A DNA stretch of 64,000 bases from a bacterium (lineage in GTDB: Bacteria; Electryoneota; Electryoneia; Electryoneales; Electryoneaceae). The translations under genes were made by a program, and so were the position numbers. How positions within the stretch are numbered: the first letter of the stretch is position 1; each line of letters begins with the position of its first letter. Under the pieces are notes generated by a model, which had not been told where the DNA came from, did not search any database, and saw only the letters and a list, made by a program, of their open reading frames with translations. The stretch is from contig OY769902.1 in NCBI GenBank assembly GCA_963669175.1, positions 5,152,001-5,216,000 of the forward strand. Direction: 5' to 3'. Shown one piece after another: positions 3 to 8,315 of this stretch.

Positions 3-3000
3 GCATCATCTCAGCAAATTGATATTGAACGAATTGAGGAGATGCCCAATTACCCGAACACGTACGGCATGCGTGACTGGCATACTGTTTCCCTGTCCTA
101 TGACACGCTGGTGTTCGACTGGGATCGTACCGGTGAATACCTGCCGTTGATCTGGTGGTATTCAAGCGCGATCAATTACCCCGAACATGACGCTTTCGGT
201 TTGGAAACGGTTGTGGGAACGCCACGCTATCATTCCGGGGAAGCGATCAACGTACTGGCAGCAGTAATCGGAGCTACACTGAACGGTGTGGACAAGAGCA
301 GTCAGCATGGCAATGATTACGTGTTGATGTGTGAAGAATTTTTCAACCGTCGCCCGGAAGAAAACATATACCTGAACAACCCTGTCGGCCAGAGTGGGAC
401 AGACTTCTGGTATGACACCATGCCAAACATCTTCTTCTATCAACTGTACGACCAGTATCCCGGGTTCGGTGATTCGGACAGCCAATTTCTCACTGTCGCC
501 GATCAGTGGCTGGCGGCTGTAGAAACCATGGGTGGCAGCGCAGCTCCCTGGGATGACGCCTATATGAATTACCGCGGATTCTCCTTCTCAACCATGACGC
601 CCAATGCCAGCGGGGTGCGTGAACCGGAAGCTGCCGGTGCGGTGGGCTGGATTCTCTACCATGCCTACAAAGAGACCGGCGATGAACGCTACCGCATGGG
701 CGCCGAATGGGCTGTGGAGTTCCTGGACAGCCGTACCACAAACCCTTCCTACGAACTTCAGATGCCGTACGGCGCTTACATAGCGGCCAAGATGAACGCT
801 GAACTGGGCGCAGGGTACGACATGGGAACCCTGGTCGACTGGTGTTTCAGTTACCAGCCGCTCCGTGCCTGGGGGGTCATGGTGGGAACATGGGGCGATT
901 ACGATGTCCACGGACTGGTCGGTGAATTGTCCGGCAATGATTACCCATTTATGATGAATGGATTCGAACAGGCAGGCGCGTTGGTTCCCATGGTACGCTA
1001 TGACGACCGTTTTGCCCGTGCTATCGGCAAATGGATGCTGCATCTCGCCAGCGCCAGCCGTCTCTACTACCCTGCATTCCTGCCAGCCGAGAACCAGGAC
1101 AGCGAAGAATGGTCTTTTGAATACGACCCACAATCCGTAATCGGTCATGAAGCCATTCGTGAGACCGTCAACGGTCATTCACCGTTTGCCACCGGCGATG
1201 CCATTTCCGGCGGTTGGGGTGAGACCAACCTGACCCTGTACAGCTCTTCGCACGTGGGCATCCTTGGTGCAATCGTAGACACGACAGATGTTTCCATGAT
1301 CCTGCAACTGGATATGCTGGCCACAGATTATTACCGTGATGACGCCTATCCCAGTTACCTGCTGTACAACCCGTACGATACTGAACAAACTGTTACCCTC
1401 AATGTGGGTAACGATGCTGTGGACATTTACGATGCCGTAGCGAATGATTTTATCGCGACCAATGTATCAGGTGAAACGGAAGTCCAGTTGGCTGCCGATG
1501 ACGCACGTGTGCTGGTCTACTGCCCGGCCGGGGGTACAGTAACGTATGACCTGGCGAAAATGTTGGTTGATGGAGTGTTCGTCGATTATATGAGTGATAA
1601 TACCGTCGCCAACTGGCCGCCACGTATCAAGGGACTTGCTGCAGATCCGGCCTCCCCGGTTCGTAATGAAGAGGTGACATTATATGCCACCGTTGAAGAT
1701 CGTGATGAGGATGAACTCAGTTATACCTGGTTTGCCGGAGCAGGAGAAATTTCCGGGACTGGCGCAACCGTAACATGGACCACACCGGACCAGGCAGGAG
1801 AACAGACCATAAGTGTGATAGCAAATGATGGTACGGATTCAGACACGACCGTCATCATGGTTGAAGTCCTTGCTTCTCACCCACCGGTGATTTCCAACCT
1901 GTATGCCGAGCCCAATGTTGTGGAACTGGGCGGAGTCGCCACTCTTTTCTGCGTGGCAACAGACGCTGATGATGACAGCCTGAGCTATTCCTGGTCTGCT
2001 GATGGGGGCACGATCACCGGCGAAGGCGCTGAAGTTACCTGGCACGCGCCCGACGCAGAGGGCACATTCACCATTTCCTGCGAAGTATCCGATCCCTATG
2101 GCATGTCAGCCTCGGATGAGCTTTCCCTGCCGGTTGGCGACCTGGTTGGGATGTACTGGCTGATGAACGGGCAGGCGCTCGATACGGGAGCATTTGACAA
2201 CGACGGCACCGTGAACGGCGCTACGGCGACTGATGGGCGTGATGGCACCCCCAATGGCGCCCTTCTTTTCGATGGCGAGGATAATGTCATCGTTCCCATG
2301 TCGCCATCGCTGAACTTCAATCGTGCCGTTTCGCTATCCTTCTGGATGAAACCGACGGAACTGCCGGACCGTGAGATTTTCCTGATCTCACACGGTAGCT
2401 GGCAGAACCGTTACAAGGTCTCACTAATTCCGGACGACCGTATCCGTTGGACCTTGAAGACAGACACAACGACCAATAATGGCATCTTTGACCTTGATTC
2501 TGAGACTCATGTGGTGACAGACCAGTGGTACCATGTCGTCGTCACCTATGGAGAAGGACAAGCCTCTGTTTACGTAAACGGTGAACAGGAGGGTTCTATC
2601 ACCTGGAATGGATCCATACTCCAGACCGATGTAGATCTTTGCTTCGCCCAGATGCTGCCCAGTGATGAAGCTTACAATTTCATTGGTGTAATGGATGATA
2701 TTCGCATCTACAATCGTGTGCTGGATGGGACAGAAGTGGATGAACTGTACCACGAAACTGATGTCGCCAACAACAATACAGCGCTTTTACCACGACACTT
2801 TGCCCTTGAAAGTGTGTACCCGAACCCGTTCAATCAGGAAACTTCAATCCGTTTCTCGCTTCCCCTGTCCGGTCCGGTAGAATTGCGTGTATACAATATC
2901 CAGGGCCAGCTTGTCACGACATTGGTCAATTCACGGATGGATGCCGGGTATCACAACCTGCACTGGGATGCGGCCGGAATCAGCTCGGGCGTATACTTCC

Positions 3001-3056
3001 TGCAATTCCACGCCGGAACAGTGAAGCAGGTACAACGGTGTGTGCTTCTCAAGTGA
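3..3056 (+). CDS. Secreted multidomain protein: N-terminal catalytic-like domain, Ig/PKD-like repeats, LamG domain, C-terminal T9SS/FlgD sorting domain; 5'-truncated by window
   Basis: Frame is open from position 3 (ASSQQIDIERIEEMPNY...), so the true start lies upstream of the window. Two Ig-like 'LSYTW/LSYSW...G..VTW..P' repeats, LamG motif 'WYHVVVTY...YVNG...MDDIRIYNRVL', C-terminal 'YPNPFNQET...SSGVYF'. Confidence 0.8.
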   Translation, partial: ASSQQIDIERIEEMPNYPNTYGMRDWHTVSLSYDTLVFDWDRTGEYLPLIWWYSSAINYPEHDAFGLETVVGTPRYHSGEAINVLAAVIGATLNGVDKSSQHGNDYVLMCEEFFNRRPEENIYLNNPVGQSGTDFWYDTMPNIFFYQLYDQYPGFGDSDSQFLTVADQWLAAVETMGGSAAPWDDAYMNYRGFSFSTMTPNASGVREPEAAGAVGWILYHAYKETGDERYRMGAEWAVEFLDSRTTNPSYELQMPYGAYIAAKMNAELGAGYDMGTLVDWCFSYQPLRAWGVMVGTWGDYDVHGLVGELSGNDYPFMMNGFEQAGALVPMVRYDDRFARAIGKWMLHLASASRLYYPAFLPAENQDSEEWSFEYDPQSVIGHEAIRETVNGHSPFATGDAISGGWGETNLTLYSSSHVGILGAIVDTTDVSMILQLDMLATDYYRDDAYPSYLLYNPYDTEQTVTLNVGNDAVDIYDAVANDFIATNVSGETEVQLAADDARVLVYCPAGGTVTYDLAKMLVDGVFVDYMSDNTVANWPPRIKGLAADPASPVRNEEVTLYATVEDRDEDELSYTWFAGAGEISGTGATVTWTTPDQAGEQTISVIANDGTDSDTTVIMVEVLASHPPVISNLYAEPNVVELGGVATLFCVATDADDDSLSYSWSADGGTITGEGAEVTWHAPDAEGTFTISCEVSDPYGMSASDELSLPVGDLVGMYWLMNGQALDTGAFDNDGTVNGATATDGRDGTPNGALLFDGEDNVIVPMSPSLNFNRAVSLSFWMKPTELPDREIFLISHGSWQNRYKVSLIPDDRIRWTLKTDTTTNNGIFDLDSETHVVTDQWYHVVVTYGEGQASVYVNGEQEGSITWNGSILQTDVDLCFAQMLPSDEAYNFIGVMDDIRIYNRVLDGTEVDELYHETDVANNNTALLPRHFALESVYPNPFNQETSIRFSLPLSGPVELRVYNIQGQLVTTLVNSRMDAGYHNLHWDAAGISSGVYFLQFHAGTVKQVQRCVLLK

Positions 3057-3187
3057 AAAAAGTGGACAGTGAAAAAGGTGAAAAAGGAAATGAGGAATCA
3101 GCGAATGGCTCTTCGTGTATCTCAACAACAATAATTTAGCATAGTTATTCTGCTATGTAAACAGTCAAGGGTGTAAAGAGCCTTTGT

Positions 3188-3328
3188 ATCGTCCCATGTG
3201 CCGTTCTGCTATTCGTGCTCGTGGCACAAGTTTTTTGTTCGCACGGAACAGCGGCGCCCTAAACTCGAATCGTTGTCAAGCAACAGAATAACTACCAGGG
3301 TCGCGTGTTCCCAATGGCATCGGACGAT
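3188..3328 (-). ncRNA. Predicted IS110 bridge/seek RNA with target-binding and donor-binding loops
   Basis: Outer stem 3188-3202/3316-3328. Target loop 3254-3304 holds AGAATAACTA (3285-3294, reverse complement of left flank+core 3142-3151) and CTCGA (3264-3268, core+right flank), around hairpin GTTG-TCAAG-CAAC. Donor loop 3201-3246 holds CTGCTAT (3206-3212, core+IS end) and AGTT, around hairpin GTGC-TCGTG-GCAC. Confidence 0.85.
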
Positions 3329-3372
3329 TCAATCACAATCTATGCTTTACCTACCTGCCAGCAGTGCTGGGG

Positions 3373-4434
3373 TTATACGCAGGCAGGATTGTAGTCTTGT
3401 TCTTTGACCAGCATGGCCCACAGTATCACGGCTAGTTTTCGTGCCATGGCGACGATCGCCACTTTCCGTGTTTTCCCGGCATGGATCGCATCGTATTTCT
3501 TCTTTGCATACGGATCTTTTTGCACCCAACGCCACGCAGCTTCGACCAATAGTTTTCGTAGATGGGACGGTCCCCAGTGGGTAATGTGTCCCATATGGCG
3601 TGTGTTGGCGCTTGACCATTCACACGGCGTCAAGCCAAGATGTGCGCCGACTTGCTTACCGGATGCGAAGCGTTCGGGACGATACATCTCGGTCACGAAG
3701 GCGTTCACGGTCAACTCGCCCACTCCCTTCACCTGGCGCAGGCGCTGGGTACGGTCCCGATACGTTGCGGACGCATTCATCGCCTTGATCGCTTTGGTGA
3801 TCACCTTGAGTTGCTGTTCAATGGCCTCCAGCTCATCGAGAGCAACATCAATGGCTATCCGTGTCGCGGCCAGACAATCACACGTTCGCAACCAGCGCCG
3901 GTATTCCTTTGTCCAATAGCGTTGCGGCGGAAACGGTGACTGTAAACCGTGAAACAATAGCAGACTCTTGATTCGGTTTTTGACCCGAACGCGATCATTC
4001 ATCACCTGGTCACGGGTGCGAGACAACTGACGATCCGCCTCTTCCTGTTCTGTAGGGACATGTACCCAGGTACGGGGCGGTGTCCAGAACATGTGGGCCA
4101 AGGTCAGGGCATCCAGATGATCGGTCTTCTGCTGCTTCGCTTGCGCCCCTTTGGGAACTTGGCTGGGCGGCGCGATCTGGCAGTCAACACCTTGGCCGAT
4201 CAGGTAACGACAGAGGCCAAAGCCGGTGAGGCCCGCTTCATAACACGCCCACATGCGGCAGTTGGGAAAACGGGCAAAGAAGCGTTCCCAGGCGGCTGAG
4301 TCATGCTTGATCCGATTCTCAAAGAGCACTTCACCAGTCTGGGTGTCGAGCACAACGGCGAAAGAAGTCTGCGAATCAACATCCAGACCTATAGACAATG
4401 AACGGTCCGCTGCAATAACTTGGTTCTTCGACAT
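3373..4434 (-). CDS. IS110-family DEDD transposase/recombinase
   Basis: 353 aa. RuvC-like DEDD motifs IGLD, CYEAG, KTDHLDA. C-terminal Tnp20 region with GVG, 'LGLTPCEWSSA' (catalytic Ser) and 'AIVAMARKLA'. Confidence 0.95.
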   Translation of the reverse strand: MSKNQVIAADRSLSIGLDVDSQTSFAVVLDTQTGEVLFENRIKHDSAAWERFFARFPNCRMWACYEAGLTGFGLCRYLIGQGVDCQIAPPSQVPKGAQAKQQKTDHLDALTLAHMFWTPPRTWVHVPTEQEEADRQLSRTRDQVMNDRVRVKNRIKSLLLFHGLQSPFPPQRYWTKEYRRWLRTCDCLAATRIAIDVALDELEAIEQQLKVITKAIKAMNASATYRDRTQRLRQVKGVGELTVNAFVTEMYRPERFASGKQVGAHLGLTPCEWSSANTRHMGHITHWGPSHLRKLLVEAAWRWVQKDPYAKKKYDAIHAGKTRKVAIVAMARKLAVILWAMLVKEQDYNPACV

Positions 4435-4523
4435 GGCGCTTCTCCTTGTGTTGGAAAAATGGAATACTGCTAAGATAGCAGTTCCAACACGACTTGATGC
4501 GCCTGTCGTTTAACATAGGAACT

Positions 4524-5420
4524 CGATTTTATTCCGTCATCATGGAGATTGCCGGGAAAAGGGGACAGGATCCTTTTCCTCACCCTCAAACAGAATACTC
4601 TTGCTGAATCTGTGGAACAGGAAACTAACCCGAATATTTCATGAACGGAACATGGATATTCATCTTAACACAGTTCATATCAACACAATACAACTGATTC
4701 ATACAGCATTTTTCAGGGGACAGTTTGCTCCGGTATCCCTTTGCGTGTCTATTCCCTGTTTCGCTGGCAAAATAGGCTGAGAATCGGCAACCGCCCCGGC
4801 AGGGGCAACCTGTATTAGCCCCGGGCAGCCGCCGTCAGTTTGGCGGCTACCCGGGGAGATAATGCGCACCATATATTTACTCCGGAAGGAGTAACCTGAT
4901 AATTATCAAAAGTATACAGTGGAAATATTCAGGCAACCCGCTGCCGGGGTTGGCAAGTAGCGTACATCCTATTCCCACCGTGAGCGCCAAACAGACGGCG
5001 CTGGACGGTGGGCTAATACAGAGAACCACTGCCGTGGTTCTTGTACTGGCCATTCCATCAAATACCAAATTTGAAATTGCATTGGTGAAATATTCGGGCT
5101 AACCCCTTTTCCATGTAATTCCTGCCTACTCGCAAGAAAAAGGGGAATTACTGAGGGAAAATGGGGACTGCTACTCTTTTTCGCCTACGGAGGTTCGGAA
5201 AGGTGTGAACAATTTACGACATGAACGTGAAATTATTGATTTTATGATAAGATATTGCGAAAAAGGTAGCTGTCCCAGCATTTTCCCTGGTCAAGGCATT
5301 CTTCTGTATCGTTCGCATATACGAGCAGGCGAAAAATCCGGTACAGTTACCTTTTCATCAATCCTGATTTGCTTGTCTTGCATTTGAGAAAATGAAAAGG
5401 CAACAGTCCCATTTTTCGCT
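4524..5420. repeat. Cluster of 'GGGACAG/CTGTCCC-TTTT' palindromic intergenic repeats, interrupted by the MITE
   Basis: 4524-4625 plus 5102-5145 align with 29721-29868. 5155-5420 aligns with 14697-14941. Confidence 0.8.
4626..5101. mobile_element. Non-autonomous MITE copy 1 (476 bp, ~16-bp TIRs, TA at both ends)
   Basis: Ends TAACCCGAATATTTCA ... TGAAATATTCGGGCTA. Near-identical to 13973-14449. Comparison with the empty paralogue (GGAAACTGTCCCCTTTTT, ~29817) fits a TA duplication. Confidence 0.85.
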
Positions 5421-5453
5421 TGTTTATCCCTCTTCACGATGCTGTATGGGCGA

Positions 5454-8315
5454 TTACTGTTTCTGCGCCAGTAGTTTCGCCCGCATTTCCTTTGCCAGGG
5501 ATATGCGATCATCCAGGTGGTCATATTCGGCCACAGCAACGCAGGAGTCCAAAGCTGTTTCCGCTTCGAGTGGGCGTCCCATGTCCATCAAAGCCTGCGC
5601 CAGGATCAGGTATCCATCGGCCATATAGCCATATTCTTCCAGTTCTTTCAACTCCTGAAGAACTTTATTCATCTTCACCAAGCCGGACTCAGCCTGCCCC
5701 TGGCCAACATCACAAGCGCCCAGAAGTAAACGAGCAAAGGGTCGGACCCCTTCATCTACCTTGGGTTGCAAAAGGATAGTCAACGTATCCCTGGCCGCAT
5801 CATATTCGCCAAGCTGATAACGGCATTCGGCGATATTCAGCAGTACACGGTGAATCTCATCCGGCTGCTCAAGTTCTTTCCATATCGTCAAAGCCTGGTA
5901 ATATTCATCCAAGGCCCAGGGATAGGTTTGCAACTGCATATAAACATCGCCAACCCAACCGCGTGTCAGCGCGGTGTTCCGCTTATCGCCGATTTCTTGC
6001 CGAATGGTCAGCGATTCACGGTAAAAACTCACTGCCGGTTGGAACCTCCCCATACGACGATAGGTGGATGCGATAGCAGCGAGGGCATATCCCTGCTGAC
6101 GTTTCAGTCCCAACTCACGGTCAATTTCCAGGCTACGTTGAAAATTCTCCAGCGCGTCTTCAAAACGGCCCATGTTGCGATAGATGTACCCCATATTCTC
6201 AAGCGCATACCCTTCACCACGGGGATCTCGAGCTTCTCGTGCGATCTCCAGCGCCTTCTGTTGATACACCAGGGCGCTGTCGGGCAGCCCCATACTATTG
6301 AAGGTCGCGCCAATGTTATTATATGCCGGACGCAGGTAAGCGCCTATACGTTTTCGAATATCCAGCGCCTGCTTGTAATAATCCAGCGCGTCCTCATAGT
6401 GGCCCTGTGTATACTGGTAGCTGCCAATACTGTTCAGGGTGACACTTTGTCCGGCAAGGTCATTGATTTCACGTTGCAGCGTGAGTGCTTTCTCATACGC
6501 TTGAATTGCCCGGGTATAATCACCCAGCCATTTGTACACCACACCCAGACGGTTTAAGGTCGTGGCTTCCATATCCTGCGATCCGGTCTCACGCGCCAGC
6601 ACAACCGCTTTACCCAGGTACTCCAGCGCTTCCGGATAGTCTCCACGCGAAGCGTGAATGTGTCCGATAAAATGATTCGCAAACCATTTTCCCTGCAAGT
6701 CCCCCAGTTCATTGCTGACAGTCAACGCGCGTTCAAATAAGGAAATCGCTTCCGGGTAGCGTCCCTGTCGCAGGAATAGACTGCCCAGGCCGTTGAAAGC
6801 GGATCGATAATAAGAACGATAGGATAATGCTTCCAGGTAGGCTTGTTCGGCAGCATCAAGCTTATTCTCTTTTACCAGCACAATCGCATCCGCGAAATGC
6901 GCTTCAGGAAGGTCGGAGGCCAGCGCCAACGCCCTATCCGCACGGCGACGTCCCAGCGAAATCCAACGCGCATCGTTATCCCAGCGTCCATAGACCTTCG
7001 CATAGGCCGCCGCCAGCTCAGCATGAGCCAGGGCAAACTGGGAATCAGCCTGCACTGCGGATTCATACAAACGGATCACATTCTGATAGTCTTCCCAACT
7101 GTAGGCATTGCGTTCCGCATGGCGTGCCTGCAGGAAGAAGTCCGCAGCTACCGGATTGGAAGGAGCATGCAGCGCCAGCGACGCTTCCGTTTCGCCGGAG
7201 ATTCGCCCCACAATGGGAAACAGCATGTCACGTGCAATTTTATCCTGCAATTGCATCCGGTTTTCACGCGCGTCAGCATAACCAACCGAGAAAACCCGTT
7301 TCGATGTTTCCGTGTCGATGATTTCCAGTTTGACTGACAGACTGTCATCGGCTCGGAACAAGGTTCCCTGGACCAGAAATTTCGCCCCAAGGTTACGTTT
7401 GATCCCGCGCGTAGTACGGTTCGACTGGTTCAATGCCATGATGTCACCGAGGGGATACACATGCAACCCGGGTACCTTCATCAGCTTGAAGATGAGGTCT
7501 TCCGCCACACCTTCACAGATGTAATTGTTCATGGAATCGCCGGTGACATTACGCAAAGGCATCACAGCTATTCGGTTCGAGGCTATTAACGCAGAATCAC
7601 CCGGCGCTCGTTCGTAGCCGAACATCTCGGGTTTCTGGAAAAATACCAAGGTTAAAATCAGCATCACTATCGCGATGCCGACAGAAGTCATAAATCGGTT
7701 ACGGTACTTGCGTTCGGATTCCTTACGGTGGGTAAGTTCACGCTGGATCGCTTCCTTTGAAACCTGCGGCGTAACCAGATGCAGAACCTCAACCTTCTCA
7801 ATGACATTCTTCAACGATGTCGGACCGAAGGATTCAAAAGCGATGTCAAGGGCCGGTGAAGCTTCTTCCAGGAGGAAACGTGAGATCGTAATGCCATCGG
7901 TCAGCGCCAATGGTTGCAGACGTGCAGCGATGTTGATCACGCTCCCGAACAACTCATGGTCACGTTCCACCAACTCGCCGCAATGAATCCCAATACGGAT
8001 ATGTACTTCTTCCTGGGGCAGCACCTTTTGGTTGTACGCGGCCAGGTCAGCCTGTATGGCCATGGCACAAGCGACTGCCTGTGCAGCCAGGTCAAAGCGG
8101 ATCATGAACGCATCGCCGATACGTTCCAGCACCTTCCCGTTGTGCTCCGTAACCCGTCCGGCAACCATCCCGGCATGCATCTTCAACAACCGTATAGTGC
8201 GAGGTTCATTCTCAGCCATCATTCGGGTATACCCGACGATGTCCGTGAACATGATCGCGGCTCGTTGTTGACGGTCCTGTTCCGGTCCGGTCATCATGTA
8301 CGACCATCCCTGCAT
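5454..8315 (-). CDS. Class III nucleotidyl cyclase domain + TM helix + TolB-N/CsgG-like domain + TPR repeats
   Basis: 'AAIMFTDIVGYT', 'ERIGDAFM', 'IRIGIHCGE...ELFGSVINIAARLQ'; hydrophobic TM 'VGIAIVMLILTLVFF'; 'IAVMPLRN'; many TPR repeats. Confidence 0.9.
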   Translation of the reverse strand: MQGWSYMMTGPEQDRQQRAAIMFTDIVGYTRMMAENEPRTIRLLKMHAGMVAGRVTEHNGKVLERIGDAFMIRFDLAAQAVACAMAIQADLAAYNQKVLPQEEVHIRIGIHCGELVERDHELFGSVINIAARLQPLALTDGITISRFLLEEASPALDIAFESFGPTSLKNVIEKVEVLHLVTPQVSKEAIQRELTHRKESERKYRNRFMTSVGIAIVMLILTLVFFQKPEMFGYERAPGDSALIASNRIAVMPLRNVTGDSMNNYICEGVAEDLIFKLMKVPGLHVYPLGDIMALNQSNRTTRGIKRNLGAKFLVQGTLFRADDSLSVKLEIIDTETSKRVFSVGYADARENRMQLQDKIARDMLFPIVGRISGETEASLALHAPSNPVAADFFLQARHAERNAYSWEDYQNVIRLYESAVQADSQFALAHAELAAAYAKVYGRWDNDARWISLGRRRADRALALASDLPEAHFADAIVLVKENKLDAAEQAYLEALSYRSYYRSAFNGLGSLFLRQGRYPEAISLFERALTVSNELGDLQGKWFANHFIGHIHASRGDYPEALEYLGKAVVLARETGSQDMEATTLNRLGVVYKWLGDYTRAIQAYEKALTLQREINDLAGQSVTLNSIGSYQYTQGHYEDALDYYKQALDIRKRIGAYLRPAYNNIGATFNSMGLPDSALVYQQKALEIAREARDPRGEGYALENMGYIYRNMGRFEDALENFQRSLEIDRELGLKRQQGYALAAIASTYRRMGRFQPAVSFYRESLTIRQEIGDKRNTALTRGWVGDVYMQLQTYPWALDEYYQALTIWKELEQPDEIHRVLLNIAECRYQLGEYDAARDTLTILLQPKVDEGVRPFARLLLGACDVGQGQAESGLVKMNKVLQELKELEEYGYMADGYLILAQALMDMGRPLEAETALDSCVAVAEYDHLDDRISLAKEMRAKLLAQKQ

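Follow-up and report, generated by a model that had tools for sequence, protein, structure and literature searches.

How does an insertion sequence (IS) come to occupy the same kind of site a dozen times in one genome, and does an RNA encoded in its own non-coding end choose that site? The question is raised by a locus near the start of a 64,000-nucleotide stretch of bacterial DNA (positions 5,152,001 to 5,216,000 of contig OY769902.1, GenBank assembly GCA_963669175.1, from a member of the Electryoneota), the whole of which we call the window. A preliminary description of this DNA had recognized an IS110/IS1111 recombinase there, with a bridge RNA whose guides match the insertion site and the circle junction of the element itself. 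From our analysis, we are confident that window positions 3152-4521 are an intact, recently active IS110-family insertion sequence of IS1111-type organization that carries a guide RNA. What we observed here are its boundaries, its copies, the empty sites with a single CT, the dependence of occupancy on complementarity, the membership of the RNA in a family, and the covariation of guides with flanks. The element and the DNA that adjoins it are arranged as follows.

3152-4521, minus strand: IS body, 1370 bp between two CT cores; 12 copies of exactly this length, 99-100% identical
3150-3151, plus strand: left CT core; one CT in empty sites, and base 3151 is C in 4 of the 12 copies
4522-4523, plus strand: right CT core; CT in all 12 copies
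3142-3149, plus strand: left target flank, 8 nucleotides (nt), TAGTTATT, adjoining the transposase-distal element end; varies among the 12 copies at 3145-3147 and is found in empty sites
4524-4570, plus strand: right target flank, first part of an 81-copy genomic repeat about 250 bp long
3153-3162, plus strand: subterminal inverted repeat, 3'-end arm, CTATGTAAAC, with 1 extra base outside (3152), read from the sequence
4508-4518, plus strand: subterminal inverted repeat, 5'-end arm, with 3 extra bases outside (4519-4521); holds the predicted -10 TATGTT
3373-4434, minus strand: transposase (bridge recombinase) gene, 353 amino acids, with PF01548, PF02371, and NF033542; open in all 12 copies

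The boundaries follow from the copies and from the sites that the element does not occupy. A BLAST search of the 5.45-Mb genome with 3100-4570 returned 12 full copies at 99-100% identity, plus many matches to the right flank only. Anchored on the inner ends, every copy measures exactly 1370 bp from GCTATG... to ...ATAGGAA, and the copies vary at 14 internal positions, of which only 3229 lies within the RNA region. A 1373-nt assembly unitig from run X1 covers 3152-4524 at about ten-fold depth, which is not independent support because runs X1 and X2 may be the source sample. On their left side the copies read ATAG and TTC with three variable bases in between, followed by T or C; on their right side 10 of the 12 read CTCGA, and the others CTCGG or CTCTG. 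Since the left flank varies among copies and also occurs in empty sites, it is target DNA and not element. On the right, the repeat of about 250 bp begins at TATAGCTGTTCTCGATTTT, comprises four GGAAAAGG...CCTTTTCC hairpin units, and extends here from 4522 to about 4640. Of the 81 copies of this repeat, 7 carry one of the 12 IS copies, always at the same position close to the 5' edge, and the remaining 74 are empty: 49 of these 74 read TTCTCGA with one CT, and none has a doubled CT. The single CT of the empty sites, together with the flank data, therefore shows that insertion takes place at the CT core without duplication and that the flanks are target DNA; site-specific insertion at a core dinucleotide with no target duplication is the behavior of the IS110 family. 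The 5' edge of the 81-copy repeat is the preferred landing site.

Within the family, the layout of the element is that of the IS1111 type. The longer of the two non-coding ends is the one downstream of the transposase gene, 221 nt (3152-3372, the "220-bp" end of the preliminary description) vs 87 nt on the 5' side (4435-4521). The subterminal inverted repeats have terminal extensions of 1 and 3 nt, and their arms (3153-3162 and 4508-4518), read by eye from the sequence, pair at 10 of 11 positions with one indel; a gapless repeat search of the sequence does not list this pair, which has that one indel. In relatives the equivalent inverted repeat is GGCCTCAT / ATGAAGGCC. For the IS1111 group, whose subterminal inverted repeats have short terminal extensions, the relevant part of Durrant et al. 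(PMC11208160) gives a repeat length of 7-17 bp.

The transposase assignment also stood up. Pfam places PF01548 at residues 15-160 (5.3e-18) and PF02371 (Transposase_20) at residues 230-314 (8e-20), an N-terminal DEDD RuvC-like domain followed by a C-terminal Transposase_20 domain as in the IS110 family, and with a score of 247.8 bits (cut-off 140) the protein also passes the NCBIfam model NF033542, "IS110 family RNA-guided transposase." In a tblastn search of plasmids, the best named relatives, of the ISEc45, IS5708, and IS1618 families, are 28-31% identical over 95% of the length. The preliminary description had left open whether the element is new: among 5.8 billion protein clusters, the nearest protein outside its own genome is 85% identical and lies on a 1385-bp contig, and the next-nearest (64%, 60%, and 58%) are labelled only "transposase" or "IS110 family transposase." Similarity to the IS621 and ISCro4 chains in PDB is confined to the C-terminal 140-150 residues (E about 3e-9). 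D18, D20, E66, D105, D108, and S274/S275 are invariant in a four-sequence alignment (A1), and S275 is taken as the motif serine because GLTPCEWSSA aligns with GLTPRRYESG of ISCro4. By analogy with IS621, as described in part of Hiraizumi et al. (PMC11208158), these residues may supply the catalytic D-E-D-D and serine.

Can the non-coding end specify where this enzyme acts? The predicted RNA and the segments in it that would serve as guides are the following.

3188-3328, minus strand: predicted bridge/seek RNA, 141 nt from outer stem to outer stem; covariance model R1 matches 3196-3319
3285-3294, minus strand: 5' guide of the target loop, UAGUUAUUCU; its letters are those of left flank and core, and it would pair with the opposite strand
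3272-3284, minus strand: hairpin P3 in the target loop; compensatory changes in 4 of 5 pairs
3262-3268, minus strand: 3' guide of the target loop, UCGAGUU; UCG would pair with right flank CGA, AG with the core, and UU as a handshake with donor AA (4520-4521)
3229-3244, minus strand: unpaired 5' side of the donor site, of which AACU (3229-3232) alone is contiguous with donor end and core
3214-3228, minus strand: hairpin P4 (GUGC/GCAC) of the donor site; near invariant in relatives
3204-3212, minus strand: 3' guide of the donor site, AUAGCAGAA; AUAGC would pair with the first bases of the element, GCTAT, AG with the core, and AA as a handshake with target TT (3148-3149)

The matches that had been claimed for these segments are present, and most of them run on further. 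TAGTTATTCT, the 10/10 match of the first loop to left flank and core, occurs in the 64 kb only at 3142-3151 (+) and 3285-3294 (-); 0.06 matches are expected by chance, 2 matches were seen in 0 of 100 shuffles, and the match extends to 11 nt at 100%. On the other side of the loop, UCGAG at 3264-3268 (-) is, as had been described, the reverse complement of CTCGA at 4522-4526, and the full match is 7 nt long (AACTCGA, at 3262-3268 and at 4520-4526), a length that is unremarkable by itself (4 matches in the window vs 7.6 expected). In the second loop, the 7/7 match of AUAGCAG (3206-3212, -) to the core and the first bases of the element extends to 9/9; TTCTGCTAT, the reverse complement of AUAGCAGAA, is found at 3148-3156 and 3204-3212 and has 3 matches in the window, where 0.45 are expected. 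The RNA had been called fully decodable: this holds for both target guides and for the right donor guide, but the left donor guide has just the four contiguous nucleotides already noted, AACU at 3229-3232, and in relatives about 4-6. Read in the direction of the transposase gene, 3285-3294 is the complement of the sense strand and 3262-3268 consists of sense-strand letters; going 5' to 3', the complement of the top strand comes before that of the bottom strand, which is the IS1111-like order. According to the corresponding sections of Siddiquee et al. (PMC11187229), the IS1111 type has its non-coding end and RNA 3' of the gene with the top-strand match 5' of the bottom-strand match, and this guide order is reversed in IS110-type elements. 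Beyond the core, both 3' guides carry two further bases. In the part of Hiraizumi et al. that treats IS621 (PMC11208158), the two bases that follow the right guides on the 3' side, the handshake guides, pair after exchange with the non-cognate DNA at its positions 6-7, and handshake pairing with the cognate DNA blocks exchange; neither handshake of the present element pairs with its cognate DNA, UU being complementary to donor AA and AA to target TT.

If the target loop selects the site, occupied sites should be those that resemble the guides. We removed the 12 copies in silico and scanned both strands of the genome for the 13-nt target predicted from the guides. The one site with 0 mismatches is occupied, by the copy in this window; with 1 mismatch 3 of 11 sites are occupied, with 2 mismatches 6 of 108, and with 3 mismatches 2 of 1265. 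None of the 12 insertions therefore differs from TAGTTATTCTCGA by more than 3 mismatches, and the occupied share climbs sharply as complementarity improves, as a check proposed in the preliminary description would have it for the flanks of other copies. Each site was rebuilt from its left junction, and because of this the C at 3151 in four copies is scored as a mismatch.

Several observations on the target sites may be added. The right core is CT throughout, and the C found at 3151 is at the second base of the left core; at 3229, the matching core base of the left donor guide, the RNA has U in 9 copies and C in 3. The polymorphisms at 3151 and 3229 do not go together across copies, and they may record CC-core targets and tolerance at core position 2. 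Three IS copies, with right flank CTCGAAAG.TATTGCTGATTCGA, adjoin another short tandem repeat with a unit of about 18 bp (...TATTGCTGATTCGA...), which resembles the main target with one indel; a search of the genome for this second context (CGAAAG.TATTGCTGATTCGA) found the 3 occupied copies and no empty one. As for the repeat of about 250 bp, a REP-like (repetitive extragenic palindromic) cluster, a miniature inverted-repeat transposable element, and an RNA gene are candidates; Rfam gave, for one intact repeat copy, only sub-threshold microRNA-like hairpin matches (18-25 bits vs gathering thresholds of 60-99).

Is the strand that bears the guides a structured RNA? The significance of the RNA has to come from other copies and relatives, because its fold energy alone is no better than that of shuffles. 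A scan of genome contigs with the single protein gave 3 loci only; the relatives used here come from 6 other genomes of the same phylum (at most 48% identity) and from 57 metagenome loci (29-55% identity). About 45 loci share, downstream of the gene, the GUGC/GCAC hairpin followed by GAAUAGCAG and then the element end (...CATAGC|AG), which sits 50-120 nt beyond GAAUAGCAG with CTTGAC before it. From 19 sequences, leaving out this element and its nearest kin, we built a seed alignment (A3) with a hand-written structure of five helices. In A3, 94.1% of cells are paired, vs 31-51% with slid partners, and 0 of 500 shuffles reach as high. The covariance model derived from it, R1, gave 55 matches in the 70 sources searched. 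R1 matches the window at 3196-3319 (-) over the full model length with 40.2 bits (E = 1.9e-8 in 211 kb), and on the 5.4-Mb genome it finds exactly the 12 IS copies. No solo RNA gene was found by R1 in the 5.4-Mb genome, all 12 matches being inside IS copies. A model-based realignment (A4, 47 distinct rows) has 92.7% of cells paired, vs 72.6% in shuffled and 32-45% in slid versions, and compensatory changes with both sides altered in 26 of 29 pairs, figures that lean towards structure because the alignment was fitted to the model and the sequences are related. Each of the 4 pairs of P4 shows its most frequent type in 40-43 of the 47 distinct rows, and where both letters are present, 98.9% of the cells pair. 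In Rfam 15, no family matches 2900-4800 at E up to 1. RNAalifold on a MAFFT alignment of 44 RNA regions (A2) yielded only 3 pairs, because stems of variable length were misaligned, and was replaced by the hand-written seed and the model realignment.

In the family fold, the outer stem that had been described (3188-3202 with 3316-3328) is followed by a long stem that opens to an internal loop around a hairpin; this internal loop is the target loop. Beyond the long stem, an unpaired stretch, the conserved hairpin, and the GAAUAGCAG segment together form a junction, which the outer stem closes. The preliminary description had drawn two internal loops. The target loop stands, but the helix that would close the second loop, GCUGUUC with GAACGGC, appears in the minimum-energy fold only: the pairing of the family model in this element joins GGAACA (3306-3311) to UGUUCC (3245-3250) and turns the donor site into a three-way junction. 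In this element the two folds are equal in energy to within 0.2 kcal/mol (-47.0 vs -46.8), and judging from the family model, a junction is a more probable form of the donor site than a simple internal loop. In two metagenome loci (L082, 2449-2518, and L103, 1064-1133), a second, partial R1 match (model positions 8-79, 23.2 bits) lies about 200 nt downstream of the full RNA; it could be a solo target-loop module or the remnant of a neighboring element.

With this alignment, the guides can be compared with their flanks across relatives. Loop segments at homologous model positions were matched with the flanks of the same element, a register shift of one base being allowed; the controls, computed for the target 5' and 3' guides only, are guides matched with the flanks of other elements. 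At least 7 contiguous matches to its own flank are made by the target 5' guide in 18 of 26 non-redundant relatives, vs 1 of 572 controls, and by the target 3' guide, in register, in 14 of 27 relatives, vs 3 of 500 controls; these counts are not independent trials, because the elements are kin. The flanks thus covary with the loops, where the preliminary description had named the failure to do so as grounds for abandoning its interpretation. The handshake bases conform as well: in the target loop, the first of them is the same as the base that opens the 5' end of the element in 26 of 27 cases (A/A 22, U/T 4), and in the donor site, the first of them agrees with the first base of the flank in 24 of 29 (G/G 19, A/A 5).

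We propose a mechanism for the movement of this element that draws on its studied homologs. The DEDD/serine recombinase would excise the element as a circle. The abutted ends would create a promoter, with the -35 contributed by the 3' end and the -10 by the 5' end, which would drive the transposase gene and the downstream non-coding end and so give rise to a structured RNA of about 140 nt (3188-3328). The target loop would pair with both strands of TAGTTATT-CT-CGA: its 5' guide would read flank and core on one strand, and its 3' guide core and other flank on the other strand. The donor site would be a junction around the conserved GUGC/GCAC hairpin, in which AUAGCAG would pair with the core and the first bases of the element. 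Two handshakes of 2 nt, UU to donor AA and AA to target TT, would favor strand exchange at the CT core as in IS621, and insertion would leave no duplication. That the RNA is made, bound by the protein, and guides recombination is what homology to these systems leads us to infer.

The promoter of this scheme can be placed on the sequence.

3163-3168, minus strand: -35 hexamer TTGACT of the predicted circle-junction promoter, 17 nt from TATGTT (4512-4517, -) when a single core joins the two ends

In 15 of 18 non-redundant relatives, a TTGAC-type 3' end and a TA..AT-type 5' end have the same junction spacing of 17 nt, and in 1 it is 18 nt. Circle-junction promoters are known in both groups from the sections concerned of two papers (PMC11187229, section 4; PMC11208160). 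Since no promoter-like site lies directly upstream of the RNA, it would come from the transcript of the junction promoter or from read-through of the gene. A lone promoter-like site runs from 3161 to 3133 (-), with TTTACA, 17 nt, and TAAATT with TG, pointing outward across the 3' end of the element into the flank; it is in no excess over chance. Around the start of the transposase gene, a possible long stem in the 5' untranslated region (4435-4456 with 4482-4503, 77% complementary) lies over the ribosome-binding site and encloses a terminator-like hairpin (4466-4482, -), one arm of which repeats TAGCAG of the element end.

Several results weigh against the proposal as a whole. The left donor guide, with its 4 contiguous nucleotides, is poorly decodable in relatives too, where it reaches 4-6 nt including the core, and there the base beside the core often mismatches. 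The target 5' guide makes fewer than 7 matching nucleotides in 8 of 26 relatives, some of these weak cases being G-U wobble by eye, which was not counted. The commonest variant of the target (TAGCTGTTCT) has an A-C mismatch to the guide. The catalytic motif GL.P....SA ends in S-A and not the usual S-G; in the described elements of PMC11187229 (section 6), this C-terminal motif is SG or TG, occasionally TA. A single-sequence fold of 239 nt is no more stable than shuffles (z = -0.72; 52 of 200 shuffles at least as stable), and the covariation counts come from related sequences, those of A4 from a model-fitted alignment. A scan of 3100-4600 found no sigma-70-like promoter just upstream of the RNA (1 site elsewhere vs 0.8 expected). 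Of the four sequencing runs that hold part of the stretch, all as contigs, the RNA library X4 covers only two 150-nt pieces of the open reading frame (ORF), 3911-4060 and 4101-4251, coverage that says nothing either way on the RNA region.

The weakness of the left donor guide admits a different account, which we take seriously while tentatively leaning against it: the 5' donor end might be read not by an AACU guide but by discontiguous pairing in the three-way junction, or by protein on the subterminal repeat, and the clade would be a mechanistic variant of the IS621 scheme. The short left donor match here and in relatives, the mismatch of the core-adjacent base in many of them, and the multiloop form of the donor site in the family model all fit this account, as does the polymorphism of 3229, the core position of the left donor segment, in 3 of 12 active-looking copies. 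The inverted repeats are longer than in IS110-type elements, and multiloop donor sites are noted for many IS1111 orthologs in the part of Durrant et al. that deals with them (PMC11208160). Pointing the other way, most relatives do match in the CU core and in 2-4 bases next to it, and two of them, L064 and L065, make a compensatory pair in the left donor segment, GUAUCU going with an ATAC... end and GUAACU with a TTAC... end. A candidate discontiguous pairing of the left donor, AACA plus AACU, also came to light, which we do not put forward as a claim. A more specific form strikes us as rather unlikely, though worth stating: the clade would read its donor asymmetrically, with a strong 3' guide and handshake, a near-vestigial 5' guide, and a three-way junction, while the long subterminal repeat, protein-bound or pairing discontiguously, would add specificity. 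If this were true, the rules for programming the donor would differ from those of IS621, and the 12 insertions with about 1,385 candidate sites would be a natural map of specificity.

That there is no guide RNA at all, and that the flank matches work through the DNA itself or arose as a by-product (the end being, for example, a scaffold for protein binding and the target-like segments relics of past insertions), we regard as very improbable. Such an account could appeal to the coverage of X4, which is confined to the ORF, and to a fold energy that is not significant alone. Yet compensatory pair changes in five helices speak for selection on a folded strand, and across relatives the guide segments in unpaired loops shift with the target while the stems stay paired; moreover, in ISEc11, ISPa11, and ISKpn4, homologous RNAs co-purify with the transposases and are needed for transposition, according to the portion of PMC11187229 that covers them. 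Scarcely credible is the notion that the copies are inactive relics or that misplaced boundaries have turned part of the element into "flank," for although the left flank is partly constant among copies (ATAG..TTC), 3145-3147 and 3151 differ among them, the joined flanks with one CT are carried by 49 of the 74 unoccupied repeat copies and a doubled CT by none, and open frames in 12 of 12 copies with only 14 internal differences already contradict a relic. The proposal of an RNA-guided element, apparently intact and with a flank-CT-CGA target as first described, is the one that we retain.

How does this element compare with those already studied? With the IS1111 seekRNA elements ISEc11, ISPa11, and ISKpn4, in the parts of PMC11187229 that describe them, it shares a DEDD transposase of about 340-350 amino acids, a long non-coding end 3' of the gene, subterminal inverted repeats, the same guide order, site-specific insertion without duplication, a circle-junction promoter, and repeats as targets. 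It differs from them in its target and in its S-A motif, vs S-G or T-G, and we found no close sequence relationship, the plasmid-borne relatives named above being the best. ISPa11 reportedly targets REP sequences. An "ISPa11 target" is named in section 13 of PMC11187229. With IS621, from the pertinent passages of Durrant et al. (PMC11208160) and Hiraizumi et al. (PMC11208158), it has in common the CT core, a promoter reconstituted on circularization, a target loop whose 5' side is flank and core on one strand and whose 3' side is core and other flank on the other, and 2-nt handshake guides 3' of the core that are complementary to non-cognate DNA. Unlike in IS621, the RNA lies 3' and not 5' of the gene, the donor site is a three-way junction in the family model and not a simple internal loop, the left donor guide is very short, and the inverted repeats are long; the proteins are distantly similar, in their C-terminal part only (E = 3.2e-9). 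A bridge RNA is predicted in the right end of 93% of IS1111 elements, according to the portion of Durrant et al. on this group (PMC11208160), and its donor nucleotides often lie in a multiloop. ISPpu9 of Pseudomonas putida, with its small RNA Ssr9, is likewise a multi-copy IS110-family element in repetitive extragenic sequences with a small-RNA gene downstream, as PMC12288879 describes in part; it has extra solo copies of the RNA gene, whereas R1 finds none here.

Published work already covers the mechanism, the placement of the RNA, the handshake bases, the junction promoter, and the targeting of repeats, and with its nearest outside protein at 85% identity, the element is new only as a member of a described family. 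It, or its 85%-identical relative, might already be catalogued in ISfinder or in the supplementary tables of the bridge-RNA papers. What it adds is a well-documented natural example of an RNA-guided recombinase, with exact boundaries, 12 intact copies, and dozens of empty target sites in the same genome, where the clear gradient of occupancy against guide complementarity is an internal record of specificity. The covariance model covers about 45 environmental relatives and shows the IS1111-type target internal loop, the donor three-way junction, and the handshake bases. These can be used for annotation and for choosing orthologs for testing, and leave the knowledge of the mechanism unchanged.

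Beyond the element, the IS sits between two large ORFs, and 4522-5450 is without a long ORF. The ORF at 42-3056 (+), 1004 amino acids, has a C-terminal end that looks like what we take to be a type IX secretion sorting domain. The ORF at 5454-8315 (-), 953 amino acids, by eye resembles an adenylate or guanylate cyclase with tetratricopeptide repeats.

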